In this document: in pieces, positions 6,362-58,034 of the stretch
How positions within the stretch are numbered: the first letter of the stretch is position 1
Layout of the letters: each line of letters begins with the position of its first letter
DNA from: an uncultured Ignavibacteria bacterium
GTDB taxonomy: Bacteria > Zixibacteria > MSB-5A5 > DSPP01
Length of the DNA stretch: 64,000 bases
NCBI GenBank assembly: GCA_964607165.1
Contig: CAZSIT010000002.1
Coordinates: forward strand, 46,063-110,062
Reading direction: 5' to 3'
Position numbers and translations under genes: made by a program
The notes under the pieces: model-generated
The model's database searches: none
What the model was told of the DNA's origin: nothing
Seen by the model: only the letters and a program-made list of their open reading frames with translations

Positions 6362-6394
6362 CAAAAAACCAAAGGGCGGGTTTGCACCCGCCCC
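6362..6394 (-). terminator. Rho-independent terminator after dockerin-like gene B1
   Basis: GGGCGGG-tttgca-CCCGCCC stem-loop; on minus strand followed by TTTGGTTTTTTGT. Confidence 0.7.
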
Positions 6395-6416
6395 TTGATT
6401 CGTCTTACTAATGGGG

Positions 6417-6893
6417 CTATGGTCCGCACCAGGGAGGAGCATTTAACCCCAAATAGGTCTTGTTCAGTTCCAAGACCACATCCGCGCTGGTCAAAATCCC
6501 ATCGCAGTTGACATCCGAAAAACAGGCGTCGCAGCTACCAAGTCCCAAATAAGTGCAGTTAAGCAGCAACACCACATCGGCGCTGGTGTAAATATCATCA
6601 AAGTTCATATCTCCTTTAAGCGCAGCACAGGTGGCCTGCCAAAAGCCGATGCCCAGGTTCAGGCCGCCGCCGCTTCCCGCTCCCGACACCGACTGGCCAA
6701 CCGTGTAGCCCAGTTTAAGCGGGCCGCCCGAGCCAAAGCTCGCGCCTCCGCCGTTGATGGAAATCCATTTGAGTTGTGGCAGGGCAAAAGCGGCTCCCGC
6801 CAGCCATACGGTCAGGAAAGCTACAAGAAGCGCAAAAAGGAACAGATGCTTCTTTCTACTTCCTATCAAAGTGGGAACACATTTAGTTGTCAT
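6417..6893 (-). CDS. small secreted protein B1: signal peptide, Gly-rich region, C-terminal Cys-containing dockerin-like double repeat
   Basis: 158 aa; hydrophobic N-terminus; 'DMNFDDIYTSADVVLLLNCTYLG' and 'DVNCDGILTSADVVLELNKTYLG' each fit the dockerin Ca-loop DxNxDGxxxxxD followed by hydrophobic helix; AGGAGG RBS; start overlaps upstream gene by 11 nt. Confidence 0.7.
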   Translation of the reverse strand: MTTKCVPTLIGSRKKHLFLFALLVAFLTVWLAGAAFALPQLKWISINGGGASFGSGGPLKLGYTVGQSVSGAGSGGGLNLGIGFWQATCAALKGDMNFDDIYTSADVVLLLNCTYLGLGSCDACFSDVNCDGILTSADVVLELNKTYLGLNAPPWCGP

Positions 6894-8298
6894 CTCCTCC
6901 TCCTGCGTTCTGGCCTTGTTTAGTCGCCTCTTCCAGCTTTTTCAGGCGGGCCTCTATTTCGGCCCGCTCGGCCCGTATCTGGGCCAGTTCTTCATCAAGG
7001 CGGGCCTGATTGGCGGCGATAGAGGCAGCGCGCTCCGCTTCCACATTGAACGCTCCCGATACCTGGGCATCTTCATTCGGATGTTGCGGGCTGGGGAAGG
7101 CAAAACCTCCATACGCCGTCGGGAAATAAAGAACGGTGATCTTAGCCAATCCAGCCGTTACTGCCCCGTTAAAAGGGACCTGGGACATAAGCAGAGTATA
7201 GGTAAAGGGACCCGCTGCCGGTATGGGCCGCGTGATTATTCTCACTTGGGTCTGGTCCGAAAACCCATCGGCGTCACCGGCATCCCAGCTCCAGGTTGCC
7301 ATTATGGGACCATTTTCAGTCAGTGCGCACGGTAAGGCATTGTTGGGGGCAGCGAGAGCAACGGAAAACTGCGCCTCACAGATTATTACGGCAAAGCCGG
7401 CCGCCGGGGCCACCAGCGTGATGCCAGCAAAAACTGGCCCAAATCCGCCTGGGACGGGAACACCTAACGGTCCAGCCGGACTGGCAACAAGCCCCGGTTC
7501 GTCAAACGATTCGATGGAAGAAATGGAACCTCCCGGAACCACCACGGCGCCGTTGCTGCTCGCATCGGCATCTATGCTGACGGTTACCGCATTGACGTCG
7601 TTTGTCATCGAAAGCAAAGAGCCGCCACCAGTCACCCCACCCTGCAAGCTGATTCCGGGGCTGCCGTTATCTTTTTTAAGCAGGAGGGTTCCTCCTGCAC
7701 CAATAACATCTCCGGCTAAGTCCACCGTTAAAACGTTACCGGCTGTATTATCCCTAAGCCAGATCTCTCCATAAAGCGTTCCACCCATCTCGACGTTCCG
7801 CTTTCCATCGGCACCAATGACATAAAGGTTGTTATTGGCTGCATCAGTCTTTATGGCTAGGGTTTCAGGAGCAAATGTGCTTCTGACCTCCAGACCGTTC
7901 GCCACGCGGCTATACGGTGCGCTGATTAACTGGGTGCGGGGACTTATGATGTTAAGATCCACTTCGACTTCCAAATAAACCGAGTCGTTGTTTATAAATA
8001 CATCTGTCGGTATGGGGTCAAGGATGGGGTCAACCGAACCCAATTGATGGGTAAACAAGCCGCCCGCATCGGGGGTAATGCTCTTGGTTTCATCCCAGAG
8101 AAGCCCTCCCGCCGCTGGCAGCGTGTAAAGACGGAAGATAAAAGTATGCGGCGAGCCACCCAGAGGATTGCCCAAAGCATCGGTCAGCTTCCCCTGAAAG
8201 TTGACCAGGTTGGGAACGGACGACACGTTCGCCGCCTGGGTGAATCCAACCAACAACGCAGCGGTCAAAACCACTGCCAAAAGAAAAATGCGTTTCAT
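6883..8298 (-). CDS. secreted Gly/Ala/Thr-rich protein A1 with conserved N-terminal 'NFQGKLTDxLGNPL' module and C-terminal coiled coil
   Basis: 471 aa; signal peptide; motif 'VNFQGKLTDALGNPL...FRLYTLPAAGG..LW' shared with A2 (9072..10478); C-terminal heptad-like 'LDEELAQIRAERAEIEARLKKLEE'; GGAGG RBS. Confidence 0.65.
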   Translation of the reverse strand: MKRIFLLAVVLTAALLVGFTQAANVSSVPNLVNFQGKLTDALGNPLGGSPHTFIFRLYTLPAAGGLLWDETKSITPDAGGLFTHQLGSVDPILDPIPTDVFINNDSVYLEVEVDLNIISPRTQLISAPYSRVANGLEVRSTFAPETLAIKTDAANNNLYVIGADGKRNVEMGGTLYGEIWLRDNTAGNVLTVDLAGDVIGAGGTLLLKKDNGSPGISLQGGVTGGGSLLSMTNDVNAVTVSIDADASSNGAVVVPGGSISSIESFDEPGLVASPAGPLGVPVPGGFGPVFAGITLVAPAAGFAVIICEAQFSVALAAPNNALPCALTENGPIMATWSWDAGDADGFSDQTQVRIITRPIPAAGPFTYTLLMSQVPFNGAVTAGLAKITVLYFPTAYGGFAFPSPQHPNEDAQVSGAFNVEAERAASIAANQARLDEELAQIRAERAEIEARLKKLEEATKQGQNAGGGDDN

Positions 8299-8530
8299 TG
8301 CTTATTCCTCCCGTTTTTTTGGGTTTTTTACTTGCTGTCCGCCTTTACGGCGGACAGCGTTTACGCTTGTGCCGTTAAATCAGAAGATTTGCTTTCCAGC
8401 GGTGCCTCCTTTCGTTGCCTGCCAATCCGAAAAAAGTCCTAAAAGCTATGTAACTACAAGTCACCCGGCAATCCCCCCACAGAACTGCCGTTTAAGAGCC
8501 ATATTCAAAATACCCCTTGGTCAGCCCTTA
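8299..8530 (-). promoter_or_regulatory. conserved ~230-nt leader/promoter region (copy 1) with perfect palindrome CTGTCCGCC-tttac-GGCGGACAG
   Basis: Near-identical to 10479..10715 over several blocks although downstream CDSs have diverged; palindrome at ~8337..8359. Confidence 0.55.
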
Positions 8531-8552
8531 GTCAAGCTTTTTCGGGGGCTGG

Positions 8553-8584
8553 AAAATAAAAAGGGGCGGGTTTTCACCCGCCCC
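8553..8584 (-). terminator. Rho-independent terminator after dockerin-like gene B2
   Basis: GGGGCGGG-ttttca-CCCGCCCC; minus strand followed by TTTTATTTTCC. Confidence 0.7.
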
Positions 8585-8606
8585 TTGGATGTTTTTGCGC
8601 TTGCCT

Positions 8607-9062
8607 TTACGGAGGTCCGCACCAGGGAGGAGCACTTAGCCCCAGAAAGGTCTTGTTCAGTTCCAAGACCACATCCGCACCGGTCAAAATATTGTCGCAG
8701 TTAACGTCGGCAAAGCAGACGTTGCAGTTGCCGAGTCCCAAAAAGGTGCAGTTAAGCAGCAACACCACGTCGGCGCCGGTGTAAATGGCGTCGTGGTTCA
8801 TATCCCCTTTACTGGAGCCGCAGGTTCCATACAAATATCCGGCATAGTTGTAGTAATTGGCGCTGTTTCCCACTCCAATCGGCGTGCTTTGAGCGGCGAT
8901 GGTCACCGGCTGCCGGCGGTTAGCCGAGCTCATCGCTCCCCCGGAGTTGGAAAAGGCCTGGCGCGGAATCTTATAGTTGGCGCTGGACATCTGGGCGGAG
9001 GTTTCTCCAGCTAACCAGCCGAACCCTAAAACTCCGCATAGAAAGATTAATACCTTTCGCAT
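8607..9062 (-). CDS. small secreted protein B2 (paralog of B1) with C-terminal Cys-containing dockerin-like double repeat
   Basis: 151 aa; 'DMNHDAIYTGADVVLLLNCTFLG...DVNCDNILTGADVVLELNKTFLG...PPWCGPP'; AGGAGG RBS 5 nt upstream of ATG. Confidence 0.7.
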   Translation of the reverse strand: MRKVLIFLCGVLGFGWLAGETSAQMSSANYKIPRQAFSNSGGAMSSANRRQPVTIAAQSTPIGVGNSANYYNYAGYLYGTCGSSKGDMNHDAIYTGADVVLLLNCTFLGLGNCNVCFADVNCDNILTGADVVLELNKTFLGLSAPPWCGPP

Positions 9063-9071
9063 TGTTTCCTC

Positions 9072-10478
9072 CTACTCTCTTGGCTGTCCAATTTGCGGCG
9101 TTTCCGGGCCAGGAGTGGCGACCGGCAGAGCAACAGGGACATAAAGGGCTGAAGCGATAGCACCGGGATACAAGTGGATTGCAAAGCCGCTCCCGGCATT
9201 ATCAGCGTTCAGATAAAAGGTAACCGCTCCAGGTCCTCCAACCGGAACCACCCGGACGAGCGAAAAACCGTGCGTGGAATTAAAGCCGCTGGTGGCATCG
9301 GCATCCTGATAATAGCGGTCGATATAAGTTCCGCCGCAGGTAGCACTGGAAGCGGGGGTAGTGCACAATCCCATATCAAAACTGACGGTTAAGGAAGCGA
9401 CACCAACGGCGTCCGCATCGTACCACCATTGGCCGGAGACGTTGAGCCATAGAACGCCAGCCGCCGGCACGGTCACGGTAAAAGAAGTGAGGGTGGCCGG
9501 TACGGGGCTTACGGTGAGGGGGGCAGGCAGCAGTACGGAACCGGCCGCCGCTTTTGCGTCGGGGCCGAGCTCAATGGCGCTGATGGCGTTCGCGGGCAGA
9601 ACGGCCGAAGCATTCCCAGCCACCCCGCCATCCAGAGTGATGGTGGTTGCACTGGCGCCGTTTGTCAGGTTGAGGGTGCCGCCACTACCGGTGGTGCCGC
9701 CATAGAGAGATGCCCCTGGGGTGCCACTCTCTTTGTTCAAATTTAAACTCCCTCCAACCGGGCAGGCAAGACAACCACCGTCGAGGGTGGCTGAAATGTT
9801 TCCCGCACCAGCTCCGTTCACGAAGTCCGCTCTCCCATTACCGAGCCCATTTGGGGTTAGAGCGATAACATTACCTGAGAATGAAAAATCCAAACCGAGC
9901 GTGCCATACATAACGTCCCCGGCCCTCTTAACGTAGTCGCCGCTGGTCAGCCCACCCAGCCGGTCGGCATTAATGGCATAGGCCACGCTGGTAATTTCCT
10001 GCCGGGGAGTCATTTCCAGCGCTTCCGTCGTGACCTTAACCCCCAGATAGCGGGGTATGCCATCAAACAGGTCGGCCGGGAAAGCCGGCCCCGTACCTAA
10101 CGGGACGTTGTAAAAGCCATCCGCATCCGGCGTTACAGGGGTGGATTGCGGCCCCCATAAAAGCAGCGCGCCTCCCCCCGGCCCGTCGTAGATTCTGAAT
10201 TCCAAGGTGGTCATCACGGTAATCGGCGCCCCCAATGTGTTGGTCAGTTTCCCCTGATAATTGATGGTGGCAGGCACCACCAAGCTGGCTCCCTGGCCTG
10301 TTCCGGCGGCAGGCGGCTGAATCACCACACCCGGCGGTAGGTCATTGACCCGCGAGGTGAGCGGCTGAACCACCCCACCCCGCGGTTGGTCCGCGGCCTG
10401 CAAACTGCCCCCTGCTGTCAGTAAAAAACTGAACGCTAAAACAGTTAGCGTTAAAGCTGGTAAAAAAGAACGTTTCAT
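9072..10478 (-). CDS. secreted Gly/Ala/Thr-rich protein A2 (paralog of A1) with N-terminal 'INYQGKLTNTLGAPI' module
   Basis: 468 aa; signal peptide; same N-terminal motif and compositional bias as A1; 9-nt gap to B2. Confidence 0.65.
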   Translation of the reverse strand: MKRSFLPALTLTVLAFSFLLTAGGSLQAADQPRGGVVQPLTSRVNDLPPGVVIQPPAAGTGQGASLVVPATINYQGKLTNTLGAPITVMTTLEFRIYDGPGGGALLLWGPQSTPVTPDADGFYNVPLGTGPAFPADLFDGIPRYLGVKVTTEALEMTPRQEITSVAYAINADRLGGLTSGDYVKRAGDVMYGTLGLDFSFSGNVIALTPNGLGNGRADFVNGAGAGNISATLDGGCLACPVGGSLNLNKESGTPGASLYGGTTGSGGTLNLTNGASATTITLDGGVAGNASAVLPANAISAIELGPDAKAAAGSVLLPAPLTVSPVPATLTSFTVTVPAAGVLWLNVSGQWWYDADAVGVASLTVSFDMGLCTTPASSATCGGTYIDRYYQDADATSGFNSTHGFSLVRVVPVGGPGAVTFYLNADNAGSGFAIHLYPGAIASALYVPVALPVATPGPETPQIGQPRE

Positions 10479-10715
10479 TGCTTACTCCTCCCGTTTTTTG
10501 GATTTTTTGATTTCCTGTCCGCCTTTACGGCGGACAGCGTTTACGTCTTTTGGTGATAAAATTAAAAGATTCGCTTCTCCAGCGCTTCCTCCTTTCGTTG
10601 CCTGCCAATCCGAAAAAAATCCTAAAAGCAAAGCTATGTAACTACAAGTCACCCGGCAATCCCCCCACAGAACTGCCGTTTAAAAGCCACTTAAAAAATA
10701 GGCAGGTTTCCTTTT
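10479..10715 (-). promoter_or_regulatory. conserved ~230-nt leader/promoter region (copy 2) with the same CTGTCCGCC-tttac-GGCGGACAG palindrome
   Basis: Blocks 'ttcctcctttcgttgcctgccaatccgaaaaaa' and 'ctatgtaactacaagtcacccggcaatccccccacagaactgccgtttaa' shared with copy 1. Confidence 0.55.
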
Positions 10716-10824
10716 ATTGTCAAGCAAAACTTTGACTTTTTTAACAAAAAAGGTTGCCAATTTCGGAGGAAACCCTATTTTATCCTGCCGGTTCTGATAA
10801 ACCCTGACGGAGGAGGGTAATAAG

Positions 10825-11280
10825 ATGAACAGAACGACTGATGTAATGGCAGCTTGGGGTCCAACGGTTTTGCGGCTGGGGGTAGGGGTGGTTTTTTTCG
10901 CCCATGGCGGCCAGCATATGTGGGGCTGGTACGATGGGCCGGGGCTTTCCAACTGGATGAACTTTTTGGCCGCCACCGGAACGCCCAAATTGCTGACCTT
11001 TCTGGCAGCTTTTTCCGAGTTTTTCGGCGGGGTGGGGCTCTTGCTCGGCCTTTTCACCCGCCTATCCGCCTTTGGAATCTTTTGCGTGATGCTGGTGGCG
11101 GTTTTCAAGGTTCATTTGGAAAGCGGGTTTTTTATGAACTGGGCGGTGGAAGCCGGAATCGGGCACGGGATTGAATTTTCGCTTACGCTTCTTTTCGCCG
11201 CTTTTTCGCTAATCTTGACCGGCTGCGGCCGTTTCGGGCTGGATAACCTGATTTGGAAGAAAAAGCCGATGGCCAATTAG
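10825..11280 (+). CDS. DoxX-family membrane protein
   Basis: 151 aa, four predicted TM helices, DoxX-like 'FFAHGGQHMWGWY' region; GGAGG RBS. Confidence 0.6.
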   Translation: MNRTTDVMAAWGPTVLRLGVGVVFFAHGGQHMWGWYDGPGLSNWMNFLAATGTPKLLTFLAAFSEFFGGVGLLLGLFTRLSAFGIFCVMLVAVFKVHLESGFFMNWAVEAGIGHGIEFSLTLLFAAFSLILTGCGRFGLDNLIWKKKPMAN

Positions 11281-11297
11281 CCGGTCGATAAATGTCA

Positions 11298-11328
11298 AAG
11301 GGGCGGGTTTTACCCGCCTTTTTCGCTT
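11298..11328 (+). terminator. Rho-independent terminator after DoxX gene
   Basis: GGGGCGGG-tttta-CCCGCC followed by TTTTTCGCTTT. Confidence 0.7.
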
Positions 11329-27226: not shown

Positions 27227-28195
27227 ATGAAAACATTGATTTTTACGGAAACCAAAGAAAATAAATTGGCTTCAACCGCCGCCGAGCTTTTCACGTTTGC
27301 TCAAAATCTGGGCGCCTCCGAAATCTACGCCGTAGTGCTGGGAGAAAGCGTCGAGGCCGCCGCCGGTGAGCTGGGACAGCTTGGGGCTAAAACCGTCTAT
27401 GCTTTCTCCGACCCGAAATTAAAATACTTCGTCGATGAAGCATATACCGGAATCGTTGCCGGAGTGCTTACCGAAGCAAAGCCGGAATTGATTTTGGGGG
27501 CGGCGACTTTTACCGGCAAGGCGCTTCTCCCCCGTTTAGCGGCAAATTTGAAAATGCCTTTAGTCACCGATATTGTGAAGGTTGATTCCAACTCTCCCCT
27601 CACCGTTACCCGCCCTTCGCACGGCGGAAACGTTTATCAGAAAATAAAATTAGGAAGCGGGCCGATTCTTTTGACCGCAAGGCCCAAATCGTTTGCCGCT
27701 GCCAAAGCGGATGCTTCGCGTAAAGCTGAAGTTAAAACCGGTGCGGTGGATTGGGCGGCTTTAAATGTGCGCACACAAGTTCTGGAGCGGGTCAAAGAAG
27801 AAGCACAGACGGTTAATTTAGGCGATGCCGACATTATTGTTTCCGGTGGGCGGGGCCTGCGCGAGCCGGTCAATTTCAAACTCGTCCGCGAACTTGCCCA
27901 AGTCGTTGGCGGCGCGGTCGGTGCGTCGCGCGCGGTGGTGGATGCCGGCTGGATTCCGTATGCCCATCAGGTCGGCCAGACCGGGCGGACGGTGAACCCC
28001 AAGCTCTATTTCGCCTGCGGCATTTCCGGCGCCATTCAGCATTTAGTCGGAATGCAGTCATCCAGCATCATCGTGGCAATCAACCGCGACAAAGACGCGC
28101 CGATTTTTGGCGTCGCCACCTACGGCATCGTCGGTGACCTGTTCGAAATCATCCCGGCCTTGACCAAGGTTTTCAAAGAAAAATTGGGGGGGTAA
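27227..28195 (+). CDS. electron transfer flavoprotein alpha-subunit-like protein (no adjacent beta subunit)
   Basis: 322 aa; C-terminal ETF-alpha FAD-binding signature 'PKLYFACGISGAIQHLVGM'. Confidence 0.7.
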   Translation: MKTLIFTETKENKLASTAAELFTFAQNLGASEIYAVVLGESVEAAAGELGQLGAKTVYAFSDPKLKYFVDEAYTGIVAGVLTEAKPELILGAATFTGKALLPRLAANLKMPLVTDIVKVDSNSPLTVTRPSHGGNVYQKIKLGSGPILLTARPKSFAAAKADASRKAEVKTGAVDWAALNVRTQVLERVKEEAQTVNLGDADIIVSGGRGLREPVNFKLVRELAQVVGGAVGASRAVVDAGWIPYAHQVGQTGRTVNPKLYFACGISGAIQHLVGMQSSSIIVAINRDKDAPIFGVATYGIVGDLFEIIPALTKVFKEKLGG

Positions 28196-28277
28196 ATACC
28201 CCCCAGCAGGAGCTGGGGTTTATCCCGACACTAAAGTGTCGTCTACCATTAAGAAAAAAACGTATGTGTATTTCCGT

Positions 28278-28318
28278 AGGGGCGTATGGCATACGCCCTG
28301 TTTTGATTTGTTTTTTTG
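28278..28318 (+). terminator. Rho-independent terminator downstream of etfA-like gene
   Basis: GGGGCGTAT-ggc-ATACGCCC followed by TGTTTTGATTTGTTTTTTTG. Confidence 0.7.
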
Positions 28319-28380
28319 TTTCTTGTAGGGGCACAACATGTTGTGCCCTTCCCCAATCGAATTCGTATATTCCCTCCGTT

Positions 28381-28453
28381 TGGGGCGTAGCCAAGCTGGT
28401 AAGGCACGGGACTTTGGATCCCGCACGCCCAGGTTCGAATCCTGGCGCCCCAG
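28381..28453 (+). tRNA. tRNA-Gln (anticodon TTG)
   Basis: TGGGGCGTAGCCAAGCTGGTAAGGCACGGGACTTTGGATCCCG...GGTTCGAATCCTGGCGCCCCAG; closely parallels bacterial tRNA-Gln (5' U1, D-loop AGCTGGTAAGG, anticodon loop CUUUGGA); CCA not encoded. Confidence 0.8.
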
Positions 28454-28461
28454 TTAAAACA

Positions 28462-28490
28462 GTGATTAGAGATTAGTGATTGGTGATTAG
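28462..28490. repeat. short heptamer tandem repeat (GATTAGT/GATTGGT x4) just 3' of tRNA-Gln
   Basis: gtgattagaGATTAGTGATTGGTGATTAGT. Confidence 0.6.
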
Positions 28491-28499
28491 TAAAAACGC

Positions 28500-28615
28500 A
28501 GGTTCGCCTGCCCGAGCCCCTGGCCGGTGAGAGGAGCGGGGAGAACGGGCAGGCGTGGCCTCTTGCTTCGGCCAGGGAATCCTGGCCCCCCTGTTATTAT
28601 TTTTCTTGGGCAATA
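28500..28615 (+). other. structured intergenic segment: 10-bp stem CGCCTGCCCG...CGGGCAGGCG enclosing a 40-nt motif also present inside msrBA, then a GGCCAGG-gaat-CCTGGCC hairpin with T-rich tail
   Basis: Read directly from sequence; the second hairpin resembles both an intrinsic terminator and a degraded tRNA T-arm/acceptor 3' end. Confidence 0.4.
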
Positions 28616-28700
28616 CGAAAATACGGCGCGGAACTTTTTTTGCTGCCGTTGAGGTTTAATAAACCGCAAACCAATAACCCAAAACCAGAGGAGGTTCAAA

Positions 28701-29267
28701 ATGAAACAAACATATCTCAAACCGAGCGGAACGATGGCGATGCTTCTGCTCGTCCTGGCAGCTGCCGTTCTGGCCGGCTGCTCGAACAACAACGCCGAGC
28801 TGCAGACCCAGTTGAAGCAGTTCACCGATGAGCGGGCAATGGTGGAAACGCATCTGGTCCGCTTCGACTCGTTGGACTTTGACATATTCAGCCACGAGAA
28901 ATGGGATTTGCTGAACGTCAGCCACAGCGACGATATCGTGGTCAACTGGCCCGACGGTCATCATACCAACGGCATTGCCACACACATCGAAGACCTGAAA
29001 GCGATGTTCGTCTATGCGCCGGATACCAAAATCGAGACGCACCCCATCCGCTTTGGCTCGGGCGACTGGACTTGCGTAACCGGCACGATGACCGGAACCT
29101 TTTCCAAGCCGATGCCCATCGGCGGCGGCAAGACCATCCCGCCGACCGGCAAAAAGTTCAGCGTCCCGATGTGCACGGTGGGGCACTGGAAAGACGGGAA
29201 AATGATAGAGGAATCGCTCTATTGGGACAACCAGACCTTTATGAAACAGATTGGGCTGGCAAAATAA
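28701..29267 (+). CDS. lipoprotein with SnoaL-like / NTF2-like (predicted ester cyclase) domain
   Basis: 188 aa; lipobox 'LAGCS'; NTF2-like fold signature; GGAGG RBS. Confidence 0.5.
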   Translation: MKQTYLKPSGTMAMLLLVLAAAVLAGCSNNNAELQTQLKQFTDERAMVETHLVRFDSLDFDIFSHEKWDLLNVSHSDDIVVNWPDGHHTNGIATHIEDLKAMFVYAPDTKIETHPIRFGSGDWTCVTGTMTGTFSKPMPIGGGKTIPPTGKKFSVPMCTVGHWKDGKMIEESLYWDNQTFMKQIGLAK

Positions 29268-30740: not shown

Positions 30741-30795
30741 TGGAAATCTTTCTAAAATACTTGGAACAACCTTTGCCCCTTTCCGGTTATTGGCG
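30741..30795. repeat. ~50-nt repeat copy 1 (shared with 34335..34390)
   Basis: 'ggaaatctttctaaaatacttggaacaacctttgcccctttccggttattgg' vs 'gataaatttcttcaaaaaacttggaacaacctttacctatttccggttattgccgg'. Confidence 0.6.
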
Positions 30796-30803
30796 CGGAG
30801 AAA

Positions 30804-32663
30804 TCAGGATTTGCTATCTTTTGTCTTTTTGACCCAATCTCTGACCATTTGTTCAAGGATATTCAAAGGCACCGCCCCGCTGCCCAAAACCAAATCGTGA
30901 AAAGCGCGAAGGTCAAACTTCTCCCCCAAATCCTTTTGCGCCGCCTCGCGTAATTCCTTGATTTTCAACTGGCCGATTTTATAGGCCAAGGCCTGCCCGG
31001 GCCAAACAATGTAACGGTCCACCTCCACCGTAATGTCGTGTTCGGCCTTGCCGACGTTTTGCGTAAAGTAATCGATCGCCTGCTGGCGGCTCCAGCCCTT
31101 CCAGTGCATCCCCACGTCCACCACCAGGCGGATGGCCCGCCACATTTCGTAGCTCAACTGCCCAAATTTGGAATAAGGGTCTTGATAAAAGCCCATTTCG
31201 TATCCCAAACCTTCGGCATACAACCCCCACCCTTCTCCGTAGGCGGTGTACCAGCCCCAGCGCCGGAATTCCGGCAGGTTTTCCAACTCCTGCGCTATGG
31301 AGCCCTGCAGATGGTGACCGGGAACGGCTTCGTGCAGGGTTAAAGGTTCCATTTCCCATTTGGGGCGGGATTTCAAATCATAGGTGTTGGCATAAAAGTA
31401 TCCGGGACGGCCGGCTGCCAGCGAGCCGGGCTGGTAATAGGCGGTGGTCTGCGATTTTTCCATATACTCCGGCACCGGCTTCACCCCGTACGGCAGGCGG
31501 GGCAGATGCCCGAACAGCTTGATTAACTCCGGGTCGGCCCGCTTGCAAATATCGCGATAGGATTCCAAAAGGTCCTCCGCTTTCGAAAAGAAAAACTGCG
31601 GGTCAGTGCGCAAAAAGTCGCAAAATTCGGAAAAACTCCCTTTGAAAGCGGTTTCGGCAATTACCTTGTCCATTTCCCCGCGTATGCGCTTAACTTCGCT
31701 TTCCCCCAGGTCGAAAATTTGTTCCGGGGTCATCGCCGTGGTGGTGTAGGATTTGGCCTGATAGGCGTACCATTTTTTCCCGTTGGGAATATCCGACAGG
31801 CCGATGCTGGTCCGGCAGCCGGGGAGATAGGTCTTTTCGAGATAGGCGGCCAGCGCTTCAAAAGCTGGGACGATTTGGCCGGTGTATAGCGAATGCGCTT
31901 CCTTGCGCAACTCCTCCTGCTTCGCCGTTGGAATGGTGTTTGGAAAGGTTTTGAAAGGGGTCAGCATCGGCGCTTCGGCCGGGTCCTTTACGATTTGATC
32001 TCTGACCTGCTGGGGAACGTCCCGCAGGGTAATCTGCGGCGGCGTAATCCCCTCTTTCAAACCGCGCTCCAAAAGCACCCGCACCTGGCCGGTCAAAGCG
32101 GGAACCGCTTTCAGCCGGGCCAGAATATCCTGATAATCCTTCACGGTGCCAGACGGCATAACGGCGACCAACTGGGGGATATCCTGCTGCACGCCGTTCA
32201 ATTGCGTAAGGGGGGTCAGTTCGGCGGGAAATTCCGCCCCTTCGATGTCAAGCGAGGTTTTGTCCTTGAAAAGGTCGTAATTGAGTTGGTCTTGGCTGGA
32301 AAGTTTCTCTTTGGAAATAGAGTTTAAAACCTCGATAATCAGGGGGGATTCTTTTTTGCGTCTTTCTATGGCGGCAAACGACATATCGGTCAATTTGTCG
32401 TTTAAGCCGGGATAGCCGATGAAGGTGGCGAACTCCGGACTTTCCTCCATCCCATGCTTCCAGCACAAATCAAAAAGCTGGTAGAGCCGCGCGGAGTCGG
32501 CGACTTTTCCTTTGGATTGGGCGAGGTTGGCACAGCTTTTTTGGAAACTGGTCATCTGGTTTTGGGCGGAAGCCGATAGAGGGAGTACCAACATTGAGCT
32601 AAGCAATGCTACTGCGATTCGTTTTTTCGATGGCCATTTCATTCCAGCCCGCAAAGTATACAA
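30804..32663 (-). CDS. DUF885-family secreted putative metallopeptidase
   Basis: 619 aa; signal peptide; 'LHEAVPGHHLQ' HExxxGH motif typical of DUF885. Confidence 0.6.
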   Translation of the reverse strand: MYTLRAGMKWPSKKRIAVALLSSMLVLPLSASAQNQMTSFQKSCANLAQSKGKVADSARLYQLFDLCWKHGMEESPEFATFIGYPGLNDKLTDMSFAAIERRKKESPLIIEVLNSISKEKLSSQDQLNYDLFKDKTSLDIEGAEFPAELTPLTQLNGVQQDIPQLVAVMPSGTVKDYQDILARLKAVPALTGQVRVLLERGLKEGITPPQITLRDVPQQVRDQIVKDPAEAPMLTPFKTFPNTIPTAKQEELRKEAHSLYTGQIVPAFEALAAYLEKTYLPGCRTSIGLSDIPNGKKWYAYQAKSYTTTAMTPEQIFDLGESEVKRIRGEMDKVIAETAFKGSFSEFCDFLRTDPQFFFSKAEDLLESYRDICKRADPELIKLFGHLPRLPYGVKPVPEYMEKSQTTAYYQPGSLAAGRPGYFYANTYDLKSRPKWEMEPLTLHEAVPGHHLQGSIAQELENLPEFRRWGWYTAYGEGWGLYAEGLGYEMGFYQDPYSKFGQLSYEMWRAIRLVVDVGMHWKGWSRQQAIDYFTQNVGKAEHDITVEVDRYIVWPGQALAYKIGQLKIKELREAAQKDLGEKFDLRAFHDLVLGSGAVPLNILEQMVRDWVKKTKDSKS

Positions 32664-32766
32664 CTATTTGCGCCGCTTGCGCAAGGCCAAAATCGCCTTG
32701 GAAGAAGCCAGTGACCCTGACCGGTCAGGGAGTCCTGGCACCCCGGAAATTTTTTGAAAACTGGGC

Positions 32767-32795
32767 TTGACAAAACCGAAAGCCCCGGCTATACT
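32767..32795 (+). promoter_or_regulatory. near-consensus sigma-70 promoter (TTGACA-17 nt-TATACT) for AT-rich gene 32999..34171
   Basis: cTTGACAaaaccgaaagccccggcTATACTgac; downstream 5'UTR contains hairpin gggatgtgaggattcgcatccc and an AGGAGG RBS. Confidence 0.55.
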
Positions 32796-32998
32796 GACCC
32801 CGAAAGATAAGCCCGTGGATTCGGGCTGAATGAAACCGCAGGTGCGGGAAGAAAGGAGAGATGAAATGGATTTTACATGATTTTAGTTTTAGCGGCTGCA
32901 ATGAAATTTATGCAGCTTTTTTTATTTGACGAAAACGGGATGTGAGGATTCGCATCCCATAAACTGAAAACCGAAACTCCATTAGGAGGAAGGAAAAA

Positions 32999-34171
32999 AT
33001 GAAATCTATATTCTTAAGAACCGAATTTAACCGTCGTTTCCCTGATCCTCTAAACAAGTCCGACCAAGATGAGCCCACAAGCATCGAGCACTATATTTTA
33101 CTTTGCAGAGCTGTAGATATACCGCCAGGTATTCCGACGGCTCCAAATCCAAGGGAACAAGACACAGATAAAACAATCTACCAGGAAGTCAAAAAAAGCC
33201 TTCTGAGCGAAGCCGATCCTACTTTTCATCTTAAGAACAAGGGGATTACAATTATCGCTCACAAGGTGGACTATAGCAACCATAAAGATGGTTTAGAAGT
33301 TTTCTTCAATGAAGACGATGGTATAGTCGATGGTGCCCACACCTATACAATCATAGTCGACAACAAGGATGAGTGCCCGCACAATCAATTTGTTAAACTG
33401 GAAATATTGACAGCCATTCCGAGGTCCTTTGTCGAACCCATTGCGCAGGGTCTAAATACTGCTGTGCAGGTACAAACTATGAGTCTGGCCAATCTTGGCA
33501 AAAGGTTCGAATGGATCAAAGAAATCTTGAATAAAACACCATACGCTTCAGAAATTGCCTACAAAGAAAACGAGGACGGTGAATTTACCATTAGAGATAT
33601 CATCAGCTTAATGACTCTTTTTAATATTGAGTCATATCCTGATGGTTCTACCCATCCTAAGGTTGCTTATGTTAGCAAAGCGAAAGCATTGGAAGATTAT
33701 TTAAAAAGCCAAAATTCATTTGAAAAATTGTCGCTGATACTAAAGGACATCTTAGAACTTCATGATTATGTCCATTTAAAAGGACGGGGGCTCTATAACG
33801 AAAAATATAAAGGGAAAGGTGGAAGGTTGGCATTCTACCAAACTCGGAAGAAAGGATATAGGCTCGTATTCACAAGAAAGGAAACACCAAGCATGCTGTA
33901 TGACGGTGCACTTTATCCCATTTTGGGTGCATTCAGATACCTCGTGGGACAAAAACCCGGCAACGGCCATTTTTCTTGGAAGGTCGGCTCTTTTGAGGAG
34001 GTCAAAAAAATATTTGACAAGGTTGGAGCTGACATGATTAACTCAACTAAAGGCAAAAGCGATAGCACTGGCAGAAATCCAAATGCTATCGGCAAAGATG
34101 ATGGCCATTGGGAAAATCTGTACAAAACTGTTGCCCTTGCTTACTTTGAAAATAACAGAGCTAAAAACTAA
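32999..34171 (+). CDS. hypothetical 390-aa protein in AT-rich islet (possible abortive-infection/defence-type gene; no confident family)
   Basis: Low-GC gene flanked by high-GC core genes, own strong promoter and terminator; weak resemblance of 'GIVDGAHTYTI' to AIPR-type motifs is not sufficient for assignment. Confidence 0.3.
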   Translation: MKSIFLRTEFNRRFPDPLNKSDQDEPTSIEHYILLCRAVDIPPGIPTAPNPREQDTDKTIYQEVKKSLLSEADPTFHLKNKGITIIAHKVDYSNHKDGLEVFFNEDDGIVDGAHTYTIIVDNKDECPHNQFVKLEILTAIPRSFVEPIAQGLNTAVQVQTMSLANLGKRFEWIKEILNKTPYASEIAYKENEDGEFTIRDIISLMTLFNIESYPDGSTHPKVAYVSKAKALEDYLKSQNSFEKLSLILKDILELHDYVHLKGRGLYNEKYKGKGGRLAFYQTRKKGYRLVFTRKETPSMLYDGALYPILGAFRYLVGQKPGNGHFSWKVGSFEEVKKIFDKVGADMINSTKGKSDSTGRNPNAIGKDDGHWENLYKTVALAYFENNRAKN

Positions 34172-34186
34172 TAAAAACGCAATTAA

Positions 34187-34225
34187 TAAGAAGCCCCGCC
34201 TGGAATGGGCGGGGCTTCTTATTCT
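34187..34225 (+). terminator. terminator-like hairpin after islet gene
   Basis: AAGAAGCCCCGCC-tggaat-GGGCGGGGCTTCTT followed by ATTCTGG (weak U-tract). Confidence 0.5.
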
Positions 34226-34332
34226 GGAACAAAAGCGACTCGCGTTCAGTTAAAAATAGAAACGGCGCGAATGTCGGTAAGCAAGGAATAACATTAGCGG
34301 GGTAATTTTTGCCCTATGTAAAGGAGAAAAAA

Positions 34333-34395
34333 ATGATAAATTTCTTCAAAAAACTTGGAACAACCTTTACCTATTTCCGGTTATTGCCGGTATGA
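34333..34395 (+). other. 20-codon upstream ORF (MINFFKKLGTTFTYFRLLPV) with AAGGAG RBS, stop overlapping msrBA start (ATGA); lies within repeat copy 2
   Basis: aaggagaaaaaaATGataaat...ccggtATGAaaaca; the uORF TGA overlaps the ATG of the 34392 gene. Confidence 0.35.
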
Positions 34396-35408
34396 AAACA
34401 ACAATTATACTATTGGCGTTGGTGGTAGGTATTATAGGGGTTTTTGGGTTGGTTTTGTCGCAAGGAACAAAGAAGAAGGAGGATAGTAACAAAGTGACTT
34501 ACAATAAGTTGACCCCCGAGGAGGAGCGGGTAATCGTGCGCAAGGGCACGGAGATGCCCTATACCGGCAAGTATTACGATTCCCACGACAAGGGAACCTA
34601 CACCTGCAAACGCTGCGGGGCGGTGCTCTACCGTTCGGACGACAAGTTCGATTCCCACTGCGGCTGGCCCAGCTTTGACGACGCCGTTCCGGGGGCGGTC
34701 AAGCAGGTGCCGGACGCCGATGGCCAGCGCACGGAGATTTTGTGCAACCACTGCGGCGCGCACCTGGGGCACGTTTTTACCGGGGAAGGTCTCACTTCCA
34801 AAGACACGCGCTATTGCGTAAATTCAATTTCTATGAGCTTTATCCCGGCCGGAGCCGGCGTATCCCCTGGCCGAGGAGTGGAGCGGGGAGAACGGGCAGG
34901 CGAAACGAACGGTAAGAGTCAAACCAAGACGCAAAAGGCCTATTTTGCCGGCGGATGCTTTTGGGGAACGGAGTATTATTTAAAGCAGGTCAAAGGGGTA
35001 ACGGACGTGAAGGTCGGCTATATGGGTGGGAAGAAGAAAAACCCGACCTACCGGGAGGTCTGCAACGGGAACACCGGGCACATTGAGGCCAACGAGGTGA
35101 CTTTTGATCCGACCAAGACCAGCTACGAGGAAGTGGCCAAGTTATTTTTCGAAATCCACGACCCGGCGCAGGTGAACCGCCAGGGGCCTGACGTCGGGGA
35201 ACAGTATAAGTCGGTGGTTTTCTACGCTAACGATGAGCAGAAACATACGGCGGAAAAGCTGATTGGAATTCTGAAGAGCAAGAGAATACCGGTGGCGACG
35301 GAGCTGCGCCCGGCAACCGAGTTCTGGGTGGCGGAGGATTATCATCAGGATTACTACGCCAAAACCGGCAAGGAGCCGTACTGCCATCATCGGGTGAAGC
35401 GGTTTTAA
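34392..35408 (+). CDS. msrBA: bifunctional peptide-methionine sulfoxide reductase MsrB-MsrA fusion with N-terminal TM helix
   Basis: MsrB zinc CxxC pairs ('CKRCGAVLY','CNHCGAHLGHVF') and 'RYCVNS'; MsrA 'FAGGCFWGTEYY'; linker contains the 40-nt motif shared with 28511..28560. Confidence 0.85.
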   Translation: MKTTIILLALVVGIIGVFGLVLSQGTKKKEDSNKVTYNKLTPEEERVIVRKGTEMPYTGKYYDSHDKGTYTCKRCGAVLYRSDDKFDSHCGWPSFDDAVPGAVKQVPDADGQRTEILCNHCGAHLGHVFTGEGLTSKDTRYCVNSISMSFIPAGAGVSPGRGVERGERAGETNGKSQTKTQKAYFAGGCFWGTEYYLKQVKGVTDVKVGYMGGKKKNPTYREVCNGNTGHIEANEVTFDPTKTSYEEVAKLFFEIHDPAQVNRQGPDVGEQYKSVVFYANDEQKHTAEKLIGILKSKRIPVATELRPATEFWVAEDYHQDYYAKTGKEPYCHHRVKRF

Positions 35409-35419
35409 GCTACTCTAAC

Positions 35420-35516
35420 TGTCATTCTGAGCGTTAGCGAAGAATCTGGGATGAGATGAGGGGCGGTTTTTCCCTCACCTTCCCCGCCCAGATCCTTCAC
35501 TTCGTTCAGGATGACA
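35420..35516. repeat. MITE/REP-like palindromic element (30-bp inverted arms TGTCATTCTGAGCGTTAGCGAAGAATCTGGG / CCCAGATCCTTCACTTCGTTCAGGATGACA)
   Basis: Perfect-ish inverted repeat with nested hairpin; second family member at 58035..58177. Confidence 0.7.
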
Positions 35517-35622
35517 ACATTTGAACCAGCTGAGCGTCAAGAAGGGCGGCTCTTTTTTTTCAATTTAAAGCCTAATACTAAAATTTGACTTTTCTCCTCT
35601 TATCTGCCAATATGTCACTCCT

Positions 35623-37851: not shown

Positions 37852-39329
37852 AATTCCTGATTGTATCGCCGACATCCGAACTCTGCGATAAACTAACCGC
37901 CGCCGCTCACCCATCCGAATGGGAATTTGTCTTTGCTTTTAGAGCGGCCGAAGCGCTGGGGGCTTTAAGGTCGGAAAAATTTGCGGCGGTGATATTCGAC
38001 GCCGCCGTTCCCGATTTGGATCCGCCGCGGCTGATGAAGAAAATTCTGCAAAAAGAGCCGGGCATAATACTTGTCGCAGTCGCCCCGGCCCAGCAGCTTT
38101 CCCTTTTTCAGCAGGGGCTCTTCTTTCAGTCCGTCGAAGCATTTCCCAAAGAAGGGAGCGGCGAAGAATTAGTAGCCCTCTTGGAAGAGTCGCTCAAAAT
38201 CCAATCGGTTTTAGAAAAGGCCGGCATCGTCGGCAAATCCCGCGCGCTGAAAAAAGTTGCCCTCGAAATTTTGGCCGTCGGCCCGACCGATTTGACCGTT
38301 TTAATCAGCGGCGAGAGCGGCACCGGCAAGGAATTGGTGGCAAAGGCAATCGCTGAAAATTCCCCGCGCGCAAGTAAGCCGTTTTTAGCCTTCAACTGCG
38401 GCGCTTTTGCCGAGGGGGTTTTGGAATCGGAACTCTTCGGCCACGAGCGCGGCGCTTTCACCGGCGCGGTAGCGCAGAAAAAGGGAGTGTTCGAGCTTGC
38501 TTCCGGCGGTACGATATTTCTGGACGAAATCGGCGAAATCTCCGCCGCCACGCAGGTCAAGTTGTTGCGCGTACTTGAAGAAAAGGCCTTCTTCCGCGTC
38601 GGCGGCAAGGAGCAGATTACCGTGGATGTACGGGTCCTTGCCGCCACCAACCGGGATTTGTCCGCCGCCGTCGCCGAAGGAAAATTTCGTTCCGATTTGT
38701 ATTACCGGCTCGGCGTGGTGAAAATCGAGCTGCCTCCGCTGCGGGAACGTCCCGAAGACATTTCGCTTCTAATTTTCCACTTCTTGAATCAACTGAAAGC
38801 GCAAAATCCAAATTTGAAAACCGAAGTTTCCGAAGGAGCGTTGGAAGAGCTTTCGCGCGCGCTGTGGCAGGGAAACGTGCGTGAGTTAAAAAACTTCATC
38901 GAAAGCCGGGCTTTGCTTTCCCCTTCGCGTACTATCACCGCCGAAGAGGTGCGGGAGCATCTGGCCCGCGCCAGTGCCGCCGACCGCAAGTTGCCGGTGA
39001 CGACCGGTAAGACGGTGGAGACCGCCGAGCGGGAGCTTATCTTTCAGGCCTTAGTCCGGCTTTCGCAGGAAGTCCGGGAATTGAAAGAGTTGTTTTTGGC
39101 GCGCGGCTCCGCCCCGGCGGAATGGCGCTTCGACCGGGGAGGCGAAGTTTTGCCGGGGAAGGAAGTTACCCCGGGAACGCAATCACTGGAAAGGATGGAA
39201 AAAGAAGTTATCGAGCGCGCTTTGCGCGAGGTCGGCGGCAACCGCAAAAAAGCCGCCGAAGTTTTAGGCATCGGCGAACGCACCCTCTACCGTAAAATCG
39301 ACCAGTATGGGTTGAGGAAAAATCGATAG
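37848..39329 (+). CDS. sigma-54-dependent Fis-family transcriptional activator (receiver-like N-domain, AAA+ core, C-terminal HTH)
   Basis: Walker A 'GESGTGKE', 'ESELFGHERGAFTGA' GAFTGA motif, C-terminal 'AAEVLGIGERTLYRKIDQYGL'. Confidence 0.85.
   Translation: MKFLIVSPTSELCDKLTAAAHPSEWEFVFAFRAAEALGALRSEKFAAVIFDAAVPDLDPPRLMKKILQKEPGIILVAVAPAQQLSLFQQGLFFQSVEAFPKEGSGEELVALLEESLKIQSVLEKAGIVGKSRALKKVALEILAVGPTDLTVLISGESGTGKELVAKAIAENSPRASKPFLAFNCGAFAEGVLESELFGHERGAFTGAVAQKKGVFELASGGTIFLDEIGEISAATQVKLLRVLEEKAFFRVGGKEQITVDVRVLAATNRDLSAAVAEGKFRSDLYYRLGVVKIELPPLRERPEDISLLIFHFLNQLKAQNPNLKTEVSEGALEELSRALWQGNVRELKNFIESRALLSPSRTITAEEVREHLARASAADRKLPVTTGKTVETAERELIFQALVRLSQEVRELKELFLARGSAPAEWRFDRGGEVLPGKEVTPGTQSLERMEKEVIERALREVGGNRKKAAEVLGIGERTLYRKIDQYGLRKNR
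39264..39320 (+). repeat. direct repeat copy 1 (3' end of sigma-54 activator gene)
   Basis: ttaggcatcggcgaacgcaccctctaccgtaaaatcgaccagtatgggttgaggaaa; copy 2 at 39559..39624 differs by 2 substitutions plus a 9-nt insertion. Confidence 0.75.
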
Positions 39330-39330
39330 T

Positions 39331-39633
39331 ATGAAATCGAATACTATTCGGAAGAATAAAAGCGGAACGGCCCGAGCCAAGGAACATTCCGGCTTGCTTC
39401 CTTTTACCTGCCTTTTCAAAAAAGAGAAAGGCGGCTATGTTGTCCGCTGCGTGGAATTGGACATCACCTCGCAGGGCGATACCTTGAAACAGGCCAAGGA
39501 AAACATCAGAGAAGCCATAAATCTGTATTTGGAATGTTACAAACCTCCGGCCAAAAGTTTGGGCATCGGCCCGCCGCAGGCGGGCACCCTCTACCGCAAA
39601 ATCGACCAGTATGGGTTGAGGAAGGGAAGATAA
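39331..39633 (+). CDS. HicB-like (UPF0150) antitoxin-fold protein whose last 18 codons duplicate the C-terminal HTH tail of the upstream sigma-54 activator
   Basis: 'YVVRCVELDITSQGDTLKQAKENIREAINLYLE' matches the HicB/UPF0150 core; C-terminus 'LGIGPPQAGTLYRKIDQYGLRKGR' encoded by repeat copy 2; no hicA-like ORF adjacent. Confidence 0.55.
   Translation: MKSNTIRKNKSGTARAKEHSGLLPFTCLFKKEKGGYVVRCVELDITSQGDTLKQAKENIREAINLYLECYKPPAKSLGIGPPQAGTLYRKIDQYGLRKGR
39559..39624 (+). repeat. direct repeat copy 2
   Basis: ttgggcatcggcccgccgcaggcgggcaccctctaccgcaaaatcgaccagtatgggttgaggaag. Confidence 0.75.
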
Positions 39634-39640: not shown

Positions 39641-40495
39641 ATGGATAAAATTACAAAAATTGAGGCAATTGAAAGAATCGAGGAGTTAATTCAGGAGGTC
39701 GATGGGTTCGAGGATAAACTCAAAGGCTTAGACGTGTCGGTATTAAACTTGGGGCCTTGGCAGAAAGATGTAGAAAAGGCTCTAAAGCTTATATTTCCTG
39801 ACAAAGCTGACCACATTGAGAAATTCAAAAAGATCAAGTTTGAACCGGTACCCACGGCAGGAGGATACATTCCAATTTTGGAGATAACCCGAAGGAGGGA
39901 GGCCTACCAAACCGACTTAAAACGAGCGCGTCTATTTCTTAAGTCAAGGATTGAAGAGATAAAGGAATATTGGAAGAATGAAAACGTTTCTGATTCTGTT
40001 GGTTCAAAAGCCTTGGCAAAACCAAGCGAAACGAGAATAGTGGGAAACAAAATCTTTATTGTTCATGGCCATGATGAAAGATTAAAGAATCAACTCGAGA
40101 TATTTCTTACCGAAATTAAATTGGAGTCCGTTGTGTTACATCGAAAAGCCGATGAGGGTCTCACTATAATCGAGAAAATTGAAAAACATAGCGACGTTGG
40201 ATATGCCTTCATTCTCCTGACACCTGATGATATTGGCTATCCGATTTCGGAAGATAGCAAACCTGACCAGCAGAGAGCAAAAGAAAAAAGAGCGCGCCAG
40301 AATGTAATTTTTGAATTTGGTTATTTTGTAGGCAAGCTTGGACGGAACAGAGTTTGCTGTTTGTACAAAAAAGGTGTTGCGCTTCCAGCTGATATTGTAG
40401 GCATGATTTATAAGCAAGTCAGCGAAAATGTAGAAGAAGTGGCTTTTTCAATACAAAAAGACCTAAAAACTGCTGGCTATTCAGTAAATATATAA
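39641..40495 (+). CDS. TIR-like domain protein (PF10137 / COG4271 'predicted nucleotide-binding protein containing TIR-like domain', as in CBASS Cap12 / Pycsar PycTIR effectors) with N-terminal helical domain
   Basis: AT-rich gene; C-terminal half 'IFIVHGHDERLKNQLEIFL...TIIEKIEKHSDVGYAFILLTPDDIG...RARQNVIFEFGYFVGKLGRNRVCCLYKKGVALPADIVG' matches the remembered PF10137 consensus blocks (hGhD, TiIEKfE, LLTPDD, RARQNVifE.GyF, LGR.RV, PSD..G). Confidence 0.6.
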   Translation: MDKITKIEAIERIEELIQEVDGFEDKLKGLDVSVLNLGPWQKDVEKALKLIFPDKADHIEKFKKIKFEPVPTAGGYIPILEITRRREAYQTDLKRARLFLKSRIEEIKEYWKNENVSDSVGSKALAKPSETRIVGNKIFIVHGHDERLKNQLEIFLTEIKLESVVLHRKADEGLTIIEKIEKHSDVGYAFILLTPDDIGYPISEDSKPDQQRAKEKRARQNVIFEFGYFVGKLGRNRVCCLYKKGVALPADIVGMIYKQVSENVEEVAFSIQKDLKTAGYSVNI

Positions 40496-57996: not shown

Positions 57997-58034
57997 CGGA
58001 GGGCTAAATGTGAGGAAACCCACCGCCCCTCCAC

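Follow-up and report, generated by a model that had tools for sequence, protein, structure and literature searches.

Nested miniature palindromic elements in a tRNA-Gln 3' flank and in msrBA of an uncultured Zixibacteria-like lineage

We analysed the structured region that follows the tRNA-Gln gene in the window (the whole 64,000-nt stretch of DNA under study) and conclude, with a probability of roughly 70%, that it combines the remnant of a tRNA att site with members of a low-copy, MITE/REP-like family of miniature palindromic elements, stacked by successive insertions and not built as one designed structure. One member of this family, the core, lies inside another, H, which itself lies in a displaced duplicate of the tRNA 3' end, and a second copy of the core is found in the inter-domain linker of msrBA. 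The preliminary description of this DNA had offered a small ncRNA, an att-site footprint or a mobile repeat as possible explanations; it missed the nesting, the host element H and the fact that the tRNA-flank copy is an unlikely donor for the copy in msrBA.

Layers of the tRNA-Gln 3' flank

The tRNA-Gln gene is the sole tRNA gene within the 64-kb window, and its sequence is unchanged in the sister genome (L008:11169-11243). The features of its flank, together with a related composite further downstream, are as follows.

28380..28454, + strand: tRNA-Gln, anticodon UUG, intact gene (ARAGORN; Rfam RF00005, 64.5 bits)
28455..28496, + strand: spacer from tRNA-Gln to the duplicated tRNA 3' end, containing the heptamer array
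28461-28491, + strand: heptamer array (AGTGATT) x4.4 (TRF score 48)
28497..28506, + strand: 5' part of the tRNA-Gln 3'-end duplicate, namely the 5' strand of the T-stem and TTCG of the T-loop, CGCAGGTTCG; 9/10 to the tRNA's own CCCAGGTTCG, 10/10 in the sister
28507..28518, + strand: left arm of the host palindromic element H, CCTGCCCGAGCC; H occurs without the core in the L024 tRNA flank and at L002:10949-10980, and with the core in L008, L014 and L015
28519..28554, + strand: core element, tRNA-flank copy, 35 nt CCTGGCCG-N19-CGGGCAGG and one C duplicated; inverted relative to H, whose loop edge it occupies; a 36-nt gap in L024
28555..28577, + strand: H right arm, GTGGCCTCTTGCTTCGGCCAGG, and a G that flanks it; alignment matches it to H of the sister, L024, L014, L015 and L002
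28578..28593, + strand: 3' piece of the duplicated tRNA-Gln 3' end, AATCCTGGCCCCCCTG; 14/16 to the tRNA's AATCCTGGCGCCCCAG, 16/16 in the sister
28594..28626, + strand: T-rich tail of the lineage-specific block (alignments A3 and A4)
32707..32746, + strand: minimal second composite of split T-arm plus palindrome, GCCAG-TGA-C-CCTGACCGGTCAGG-G-AGTCCTGGCACCCCGG, then a T-run; 22/26 to 28568-28593

A heptamer repeat, a 10-bp stem and a GGCCAGG-GAAT-CCTGGCC hairpin had been described here previously, and all three were located in the window sequence. The stem pairs CGCCTGCCCG (28505-28514) with CGGGCAGGCG (28546-28555), while the hairpin occupies 28570-28587 and is followed by a T-rich tract. The heptamer array is one 7-nt unit shorter in the relative L024 and degenerate in the sister (alignment A4); a function was sought for it and none was found. 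The motif at 28517-28555 recurs at 34864-34902 with 36 of 39 positions identical, a value measured in place of the roughly 38/41 claimed earlier, and the final 23 nt agree without exception; at the three remaining positions the changes are G>A, T>G and A>T. When up to three mismatches were allowed, the motif was found twice in the window and never in 100 shuffles. Within it, the discrete unit is 35 nt plus one duplicated base (28519-28554; 34866-34901). Independent assemblies of the same organism carry both copies, that of the tRNA flank in L010 and that of msrBA in L005 and P0241 (the latter copy being seen in three independent assemblies), and therefore neither copy is an assembly artefact.

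The outermost layer derives from the tRNA itself. Its 3' piece comprises the rest of the T-loop, the T-stem 3' strand and the acceptor 3' strand. Removal of CCTGCCCG...CGGCCAGG and one of the two flanking G's from the sister sequence joins CCCAGGTTCG directly to AATCCTGGCGCCCCAG, and the product matches the tRNA-Gln 3' end at 26 of 26 positions; the same removal of H plus core in the window gives 23/26. We took CCCAGGTTCGAATCCTGGCGCCCCAG as the uninterrupted form of this duplicate. The perfect match after removal therefore reveals a genuine displaced duplicate of the tRNA 3' end, split in the T-loop, and what had been called a degraded T-arm/acceptor end proved to be exactly this, 26/26 in the sister once the inserted element is taken out. 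Sequence comparison supports the reading of the flank as the att-site remnant of an integrative element, from whose integration the duplicate would have arisen. The att-site footprint suggested in the preliminary description survives only in this sense, as a separate layer consisting of a 3'-end duplicate and a block that is missing in relatives; no integrase or island lies between the repeats. Neither integrase nor cargo was found in that interval, whose spacer is just 43 nt, and a search for an integrase returned none, either among the ORFs of the window that were scanned (those outside 60371-63987) or in the 4.4-kb insertion of the sister. The minimal composite at 32707-32746 lies at the left edge of an AIPR gene insertion that is missing in the sister and in L027, which suggests that the tRNA-like flanks themselves may travel with something.

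The two inner layers are demonstrably related to one another. H is a GC-rich palindromic element of 32-34 nt with the termini CCTGCCCG...CGGCCAGG, and the core is a 35-nt element, CCTGGCCG-N19-CGGGCAGG, with a purine-rich centre. They have common 8-nt termini, each complementary at 7 of 8 positions, while their centres differ and their orientations in the composites are opposite. Both fold as hairpins, the core DNA fold consisting of a 4+3-bp terminal stem and a 19-nt loop. The core ends are complementary to the H ends because the core is an inverted relative of H, and this inverted nesting accounts for the 10-bp stem as well as the pseudoknot-like A-B-A'-B' complementarity, with no recourse to RNA.

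Other repeats lie near the same tRNA. Between the ETF-alpha gene and tRNA-Gln, two GTAG-headed hairpins at 28276-28299 and 28325-28349 (GTAGGGGCGTATGGCATACGCCCT, GTAGGGGCACAACATGTTGTGCCCT) have the classic REP-like form; the two recur as a pair in L031 and a similar hairpin (GTAGGGGCTCAATATATTGAACCC) in L014, and they constitute a repeat family separate from H and the core. Upstream of tRNA-Gln in L025 (3565-3640; also in L026) there is a member of the GCGCAGGTTAAGCTTTATCTAACCTGCG hairpin family and then a second copy whose loop is split by a small GCTCC...GGAGC hairpin. Given this second nested hairpin, palindrome nesting looks general in the lineage.

The in-frame copy in msrBA

34392..35408, + strand: msrBA, fused MsrB-MsrA methionine sulfoxide reductase (Pfam SelR at residues 40-152, PMSR at residues 182-332)
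34866..34901, + strand: msrBA copy of the core, inserted codon-aligned in the linker between MsrB and MsrA; its 36 nt encode PGRGVERGERAG, residues 159-170

The second copy of the motif had been assigned to the MsrBA linker, and Pfam indeed places it between the SelR and PMSR domains. It contributes 12 residues, encoded by CCT GGC CGA GGA GTG GAG CGG GGA GAA CGG GCA GGC. We retrieved 7999 homologues of msrBA and aligned the window protein with the 20 best (alignment A1). The preliminary description had asked whether homologues without the insert exist; the linker block is missing in 20 of these 20, including the closest, P0002 from the sister genome, which is 87-90% identical. The gap at this point measures 36-42 nt in the sister and the 19 further homologues (A1; DNA alignment A2). 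In the sister gene CCCGGCCAGTGCATCC is joined directly to GAAACGAA where the window has extra sequence (A2), the empty site reading GCATCC/GAAACG. The insert has a length that is a multiple of three and no stop codon, both catalytic domains are intact, and the linker varies in length among homologues. Tolerance of the insertion follows from these properties, since it is 36 nt long, codon-aligned and stop-free and lies in a length-variable linker. Judged from these alignments, the msrBA core is a recent in-frame insertion, apparently of the window lineage only. The proposal of a mobile repeat inserted in frame is borne out, in that the 12 codons are missing from the sister and 19 homologues and two further sites show presence/absence of this 36-nt unit.

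The copy in the tRNA flank, 6.3 kb upstream, was considered as the direct donor and judged unlikely. It differs from the msrBA copy at three positions, at one of which the msrBA copy resembles the L020 variant (TGGAG), and when read in the msrBA frame it begins CCT GGC CGG TGA and so carries an in-frame stop, while the msrBA, L015 and L020 variants are open. It is also 100% conserved between the window and the sister, whose lineages had separated by the time msrBA received its insertion. With 3 of 39 positions different between the two window copies, there must be at least one more donor, and the msrBA copy probably derives from another family member.

Several other repeats and variable sites were observed in the window. 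A 63-nt direct repeat, 78% identical, at 30744-30806 and 34338-34400 contains CTTGGAACAACCTTT(G/A)CC and CCGGTTATTG; its second copy is the msrBA upstream region including the start codon and is conserved in L027, and the repeat may be a duplicated sigma-54-like promoter module. Just 3' of msrBA, at 35420-35520, lies an inverted pair of the GTCATTCTGAGCG...GAAGAATCTGGG / CCCAGATCCTTCACTTCGTTCAGGATGAC repeat, with another copy at 58016-58063; this spot holds a core-less H in the sister versus the GTCATTCTGAGCG-type repeat in the window. In the interval 32690-34330, between DUF885 and msrBA, the window has an AIPR (abortive-infection) gene at 32999-34171 where the sister has a Ser/Thr kinase gene and L027 has nothing. 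This site is a strain-variable defence-gene slot, and at its left edge the minimal split-T-arm palindrome of 32707-32746 is followed by a T-run and then by a promoter-like site, TTGACA-17-TATACT. A 40-nt direct repeat, 98% identical, at 39280-39319 and 39584-39623 duplicates the 3' end of a sigma-54 activator gene. Beyond this repeat comes a CAP12/Pycsar-type TIR effector gene (39641-40495), in the place of which the sister has an Mrr_cat restriction gene, and the repeat looks like an att-type duplication left by a small defence island integrated at the 3' end of the activator gene. Finally, 6363-11323 comprises an imperfect tandem duplication of about 2.19 kb, 80-94% identical, with paralogous genes lacking a Pfam match, whose C-terminal domain recurs in L014 and near 62.1 kb.

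Relatives, further family members and the origin of the structure

The tRNA-Gln flanks of relatives were reached via orthologues of the upstream ETF-alpha gene. About 165 nt 3' of tRNA-Gln are missing from the more distant relatives: L023 (ETF-alpha 81% identical) and L025 (84%) have tRNA-Gln, about 95 nt and then the same SnoaL gene, without the block, homology with the empty flank of L023 restarting at about 28627. L022 and L029-L031 also lack the block and have other downstream genes. The empty flank that the preliminary description proposed to look for is therefore present in L022, L023, L025 and L029-L031. An intermediate form was found in L024 (ETF-alpha 86%), where the spacer and the split tRNA 3' end are present together with a 34-nt palindrome in which TCTGCCCGAGCC is joined to GTTGCCTCGGGCTACGGCCAGG, and the 36-nt core is missing; the window and the sister have the core at the exact position of this gap (A4). 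The sister additionally has a 4.4-kb gene insertion beyond the tRNA-Gln block. As read from these sequences, the flank is an insertion hot spot whose structure was built stepwise.

An identical 36-nt gap was obtained in three empty/filled pairs, namely msrBA (sister and 19 homologues versus the window), H of the tRNA flank (L024 versus the window and sister) and a paralogous H, without the core at L002:10949-10980 and with it in L014, where the outer flanks are identical (A5). These comparisons establish the insertions and their order, define the boundaries to the nucleotide and demonstrate the polarity of two insertions; two of the three pairs are paralogous, and for them we infer the polarity. 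Over the 55 nt formed by the left arm of H and the core (GGTTCGCCTGCCCGAG...GGGCAGGCG), the window and the sister agree at 100% of positions in a background of about 88% for flanking coding DNA, which hints at selection or gene conversion and not at neutral junk. The heptamer region and the right-hand part have diverged between the two genomes.

Further members of the family were sought in several ways. Screening of JGI metagenome contigs with the invariant 20-mer yielded eight contigs, of which four were high-GC chance matches and four came from the sister's sample, representing the tRNA flank, L014, L015 and L020. The search for additional copies of the shared motif that had been recommended earlier thus gave none beyond the two in the window and further copies in the sister metagenome (L014, L015, L020). 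The full 69-71-nt composite of H and core is present in L014 and L015, and L020 has the core alone, as in msrBA; the composite at three loci could reflect a single core insertion followed by spread of the composite. A core-less H at L002:10949-10980 lies just 3' of the sister's msrBA stop, and when the window and every locus were searched with nhmmer and regular expressions, the reported copies and this H were all that emerged. With two cores in the 64-kb window and four loci in the sister's metagenome sample, copy number is low; at least seven dispersed loci in 2-3 genomes, with presence/absence, were counted. The exact 21-mer gave only a chance Streptomyces match among 185,579 species-representative genomes, a 20-mer gave no match in viral contigs, and blastn gave none against plasmids and phages. 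Six-frame translation of the element gave none at E<=10 among 5.8 billion proteins, a search that is uninformative as a census. Among the ORFs of the window that were scanned directly (again those outside 60371-63987) or annotated by way of the syntenic locus in the sister, we found no gene for a transposase, an integrase, a Y1/HUH enzyme or a reverse transcriptase, and no cas gene.

The termini CCTGSCCG...CGGSCAGG and the flanks G..G are common to all elements. Written in one orientation, the copies all read G[element]G (C..C when inverted) and the empty sites have a single G, as would be seen with a duplication of 1 bp or with none; on the left, the flank is often NTCG (TTCG in the T-loop and in msrBA) and is not constant. 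H, with or without the core, occupies the T-loop of the tRNA duplicate, the core is found in H at its loop edge, and in L015 the composite of H and core interrupts the loop of the GCGCAGGTTAAGCTTTATCTAACCTGCG hairpin (GCGCAGGTTAAGCTTTAT and CTAACCTGCG), which is uninterrupted in L025 and L026.

From these observations we propose the following history. The clade ancestor would first have gained, 43 nt downstream of tRNA-Gln, a second copy of the gene's final 26 nt (T-arm and acceptor 3' strand). Site-specific integration at tRNA genes usually leaves such a duplicate as its scar, and here the interior would since have been lost. H (32-34 nt) would then have entered the T-loop of the duplicate, and the core (35 nt), as a second family member, would have entered the loop edge of H in the opposite orientation. 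Later, and in the window lineage only, another core-type copy would have entered the msrBA linker and added 12 residues. By analogy with REP/RAYT, IS200/IS605-derived or MITE-type systems, we infer non-autonomous elements that would be moved in trans by a putative hairpin or single-stranded-DNA enzyme.

Two alternatives to this history deserve weight. The first holds that the copies are templated patches, in which a hairpin-prone, GC-rich segment was copied ectopically through microhomology-mediated template switching or short-tract gene conversion during replication or repair, with no dedicated mobile element. The junctions do show 1-3 nt of microhomology (CC on the left, G on the right), and the lack of a clear target-site duplication, the lack of a transposase among the window ORFs scanned and the low copy number all accord with such an origin. 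However, we regard it as unlikely: the boundaries repeat to the nucleotide at no fewer than three independent sites (at least 3), the unit has its own 8-nt inverted termini in common with a second type, H, the sites are repeatedly hairpin loops, and the 3/39 difference of the msrBA copy calls for a donor beyond the other window copy.

According to the second, the composite in the tRNA flank is a functional RNA or DNA signal under selection, such as a small RNA from the tRNA-Gln 3' trailer, a processing or termination element or a protein-binding site, and the msrBA copy is a by-product. It would account for the 55 nt that are perfectly conserved against the background of about 88%, and the composite is co-oriented with tRNA-Gln and directly downstream of it, has a stable fold (-63.9 kcal/mol, z = -2.1) and is followed by a T-rich tract. 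Moreover, a G-U-compatible change in L014 preserves the pairing of CCCTGGCCG with CGGTCAGGG, and the left arm of H could conceivably pair with the core in msrBA mRNA. However, Rfam 15, which includes self-cleaving ribozymes and riboswitches, matched 28150-28750 with tRNA alone, both at the gathering threshold and at E<=10, and an intrinsic terminator consensus scan made no call at 28570-28610, where the T-rich tract starts 7-8 nt past the stem; the terminator alternative offered in the preliminary description for the hairpin finds no confirmation here. The z-score is unremarkable, being about -2 on both strands, the distinct copies are too few for a covariation test, copies occur in both orientations relative to neighbouring genes, and the whole block is missing in relatives with the same tRNA and downstream gene. 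Since nested inverted repeats account fully for the structure, a functional signal of this kind seems improbable to us, and the small ncRNA suggested earlier gained no positive support, having no Rfam match and a stem and complementarity that follow from nested palindromes. Two specific RNA candidates were considered and set aside. An HDV-like double-pseudoknot ribozyme, suggested by the interleaved A-B-A'-B' arrangement, was rejected for its purine-only P3 segment and lack of an Rfam match, the interleaving being explained by inverted nesting; a tmRNA or permuted tRNA-like gene was not called by ARAGORN.

Chance resemblance of a Gly/Arg/Glu-rich linker to an intergenic hairpin, for which only the GC- and purine-rich, low-complexity sequence speaks, is refuted by the 0 matches in 100 shuffles, the missing linker segment in 20 aligned homologues and the identical unit inserted at other loci. 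A diversity-generating retroelement with template and variable repeats, or a CRISPR-related spacer or repeat, is brought to mind by an intergenic and a coding copy on the same strand within 6.3 kb, but its probability is negligible, as the two have 39 nt in common only, the differences G>A, T>G and A>T are not adenine-specific, and the window ORFs scanned include no cas gene and no reverse transcriptase, nor was a repeat array found.

Beyond the preferred history of stacked insertions, we entertain as a speculative and rather doubtful extension that the elements belong to an undescribed class of hairpin elements of about 35 nt, at present active in this Zixibacteria-like lineage, which would insert specifically in the single-stranded loops of further hairpins (including a tRNA T-loop sequence and their own copies) with a 1-bp duplication, would be mobilised by some enzyme and could be exonised as a protein linker; or else that the nested composite was exapted as a conserved, pseudoknotted 3'-trailer RNA.

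Two genes were observed within the variable flanks of the relatives. L029 has an rve-family (IS3/IS481-like) transposase gene at 2938-3864, about 300 nt downstream of the same tRNA-Gln, which again marks this flank as an insertion hot spot. Inside the sister's 4.4-kb insertion, L008 11498-12070 is a thioredoxin-like ORF with a single in-frame TGA at its redox motif (DFSAAPM, the TGA, then GGCARLE) that was called as two genes and is probably a selenoprotein with a UxxC motif.

The locus offers a natural example, complete with empty sites, of how miniature palindromic repeats nest in each other's hairpin loops to give mosaic intergenic structures, and of one palindromic unit that turned into protein sequence, as 12 residues in the inter-domain linker of an enzyme. 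Its source is an uncultured phylum, the repeats of which are essentially undescribed. The locus also serves as a warning that long stems and pseudoknot-like complementarity beside tRNA genes can stem from nested inverted repeats and not from RNA genes. Should a mobilising activity come to light, elements this small that target loops would be of interest for studies of single-strand (HUH/Y1) transposition.

Comparison with known systems

REP and REPIN sequences, which are moved by RAYT (Y1 HUH) transposases, are GC-rich imperfect palindromes of 20-40 nt (PMC3116915, PMC3337134). The elements described here resemble them as short, GC-rich imperfect palindromes that fold as hairpins (DNA folds), are non-coding and non-autonomous, lie in intergenic 3' regions, build larger hairpins from inverted units and are inherited vertically within a lineage. 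However, they lack a constant GTAG-type 5' head, their flanks being variable (TTCG, TTAG, AGGG, CTCG, ATCG), they number a handful of copies and not hundreds, one copy is inside a gene, one unit is nested in another instead of side by side, and no RAYT gene was found in the window ORFs scanned or in the sister locus annotation. Prokaryotic MITEs, for their part, usually exceed 50 nt (PMC10969869). Like MITEs, the family has terminal inverted repeats (8 nt, 7/8), presence/absence between close genomes, no coding capacity and two sub-families with common termini and different centres; unlike them, it is 35 nt in size, with a target duplication of at most 1 bp and no known parent IS with matching ends.

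The genic copy has a precedent of another kind. Rickettsia palindromic elements (RPEs), which PMC1779305 mentions, are reportedly inserted in frame in protein-coding genes; they are 100-150 bp long and have many genic copies. In both cases a selfish palindromic repeat lies in frame in an ORF and adds a peptide at a permissive place while the protein is preserved, although the present case involves one genic insertion of 36 nt, placed in a linker between domains, and both lineage and sequence are unrelated. Insertion into palindromes is likewise familiar, since IS1397 and ISKpn1 insert in the loops of BIME palindromic units and IS110/IS1111-family elements insert in REPs. As in those cases, the target here is the loop or loop edge of an existing palindrome and the outcome is a mosaic of nested intergenic repeats; however, those are full insertion sequences with their own transposase, whereas here both inserts and targets are miniature non-coding hairpins. 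As for the outermost layer, att sites in tRNA genes are said to leave a direct repeat of the 3' end, with a crossover in the T-loop or anticodon loop. The tRNA-Gln locus agrees with them in its intact tRNA, its displaced direct repeat of the 3' 26 nt and a flank that is hypervariable among relatives (other genes, an IS in L029, the 4.4-kb insert of the sister), and it departs from them in having 43 nt between the repeats, no integrase or cargo and a repeat interrupted exactly in the T-loop by H. The kind of element is already known, as a REP/MITE with an RPE-like genic insertion; what is new is the 35-nt size, the self-nesting and the T-loop target.
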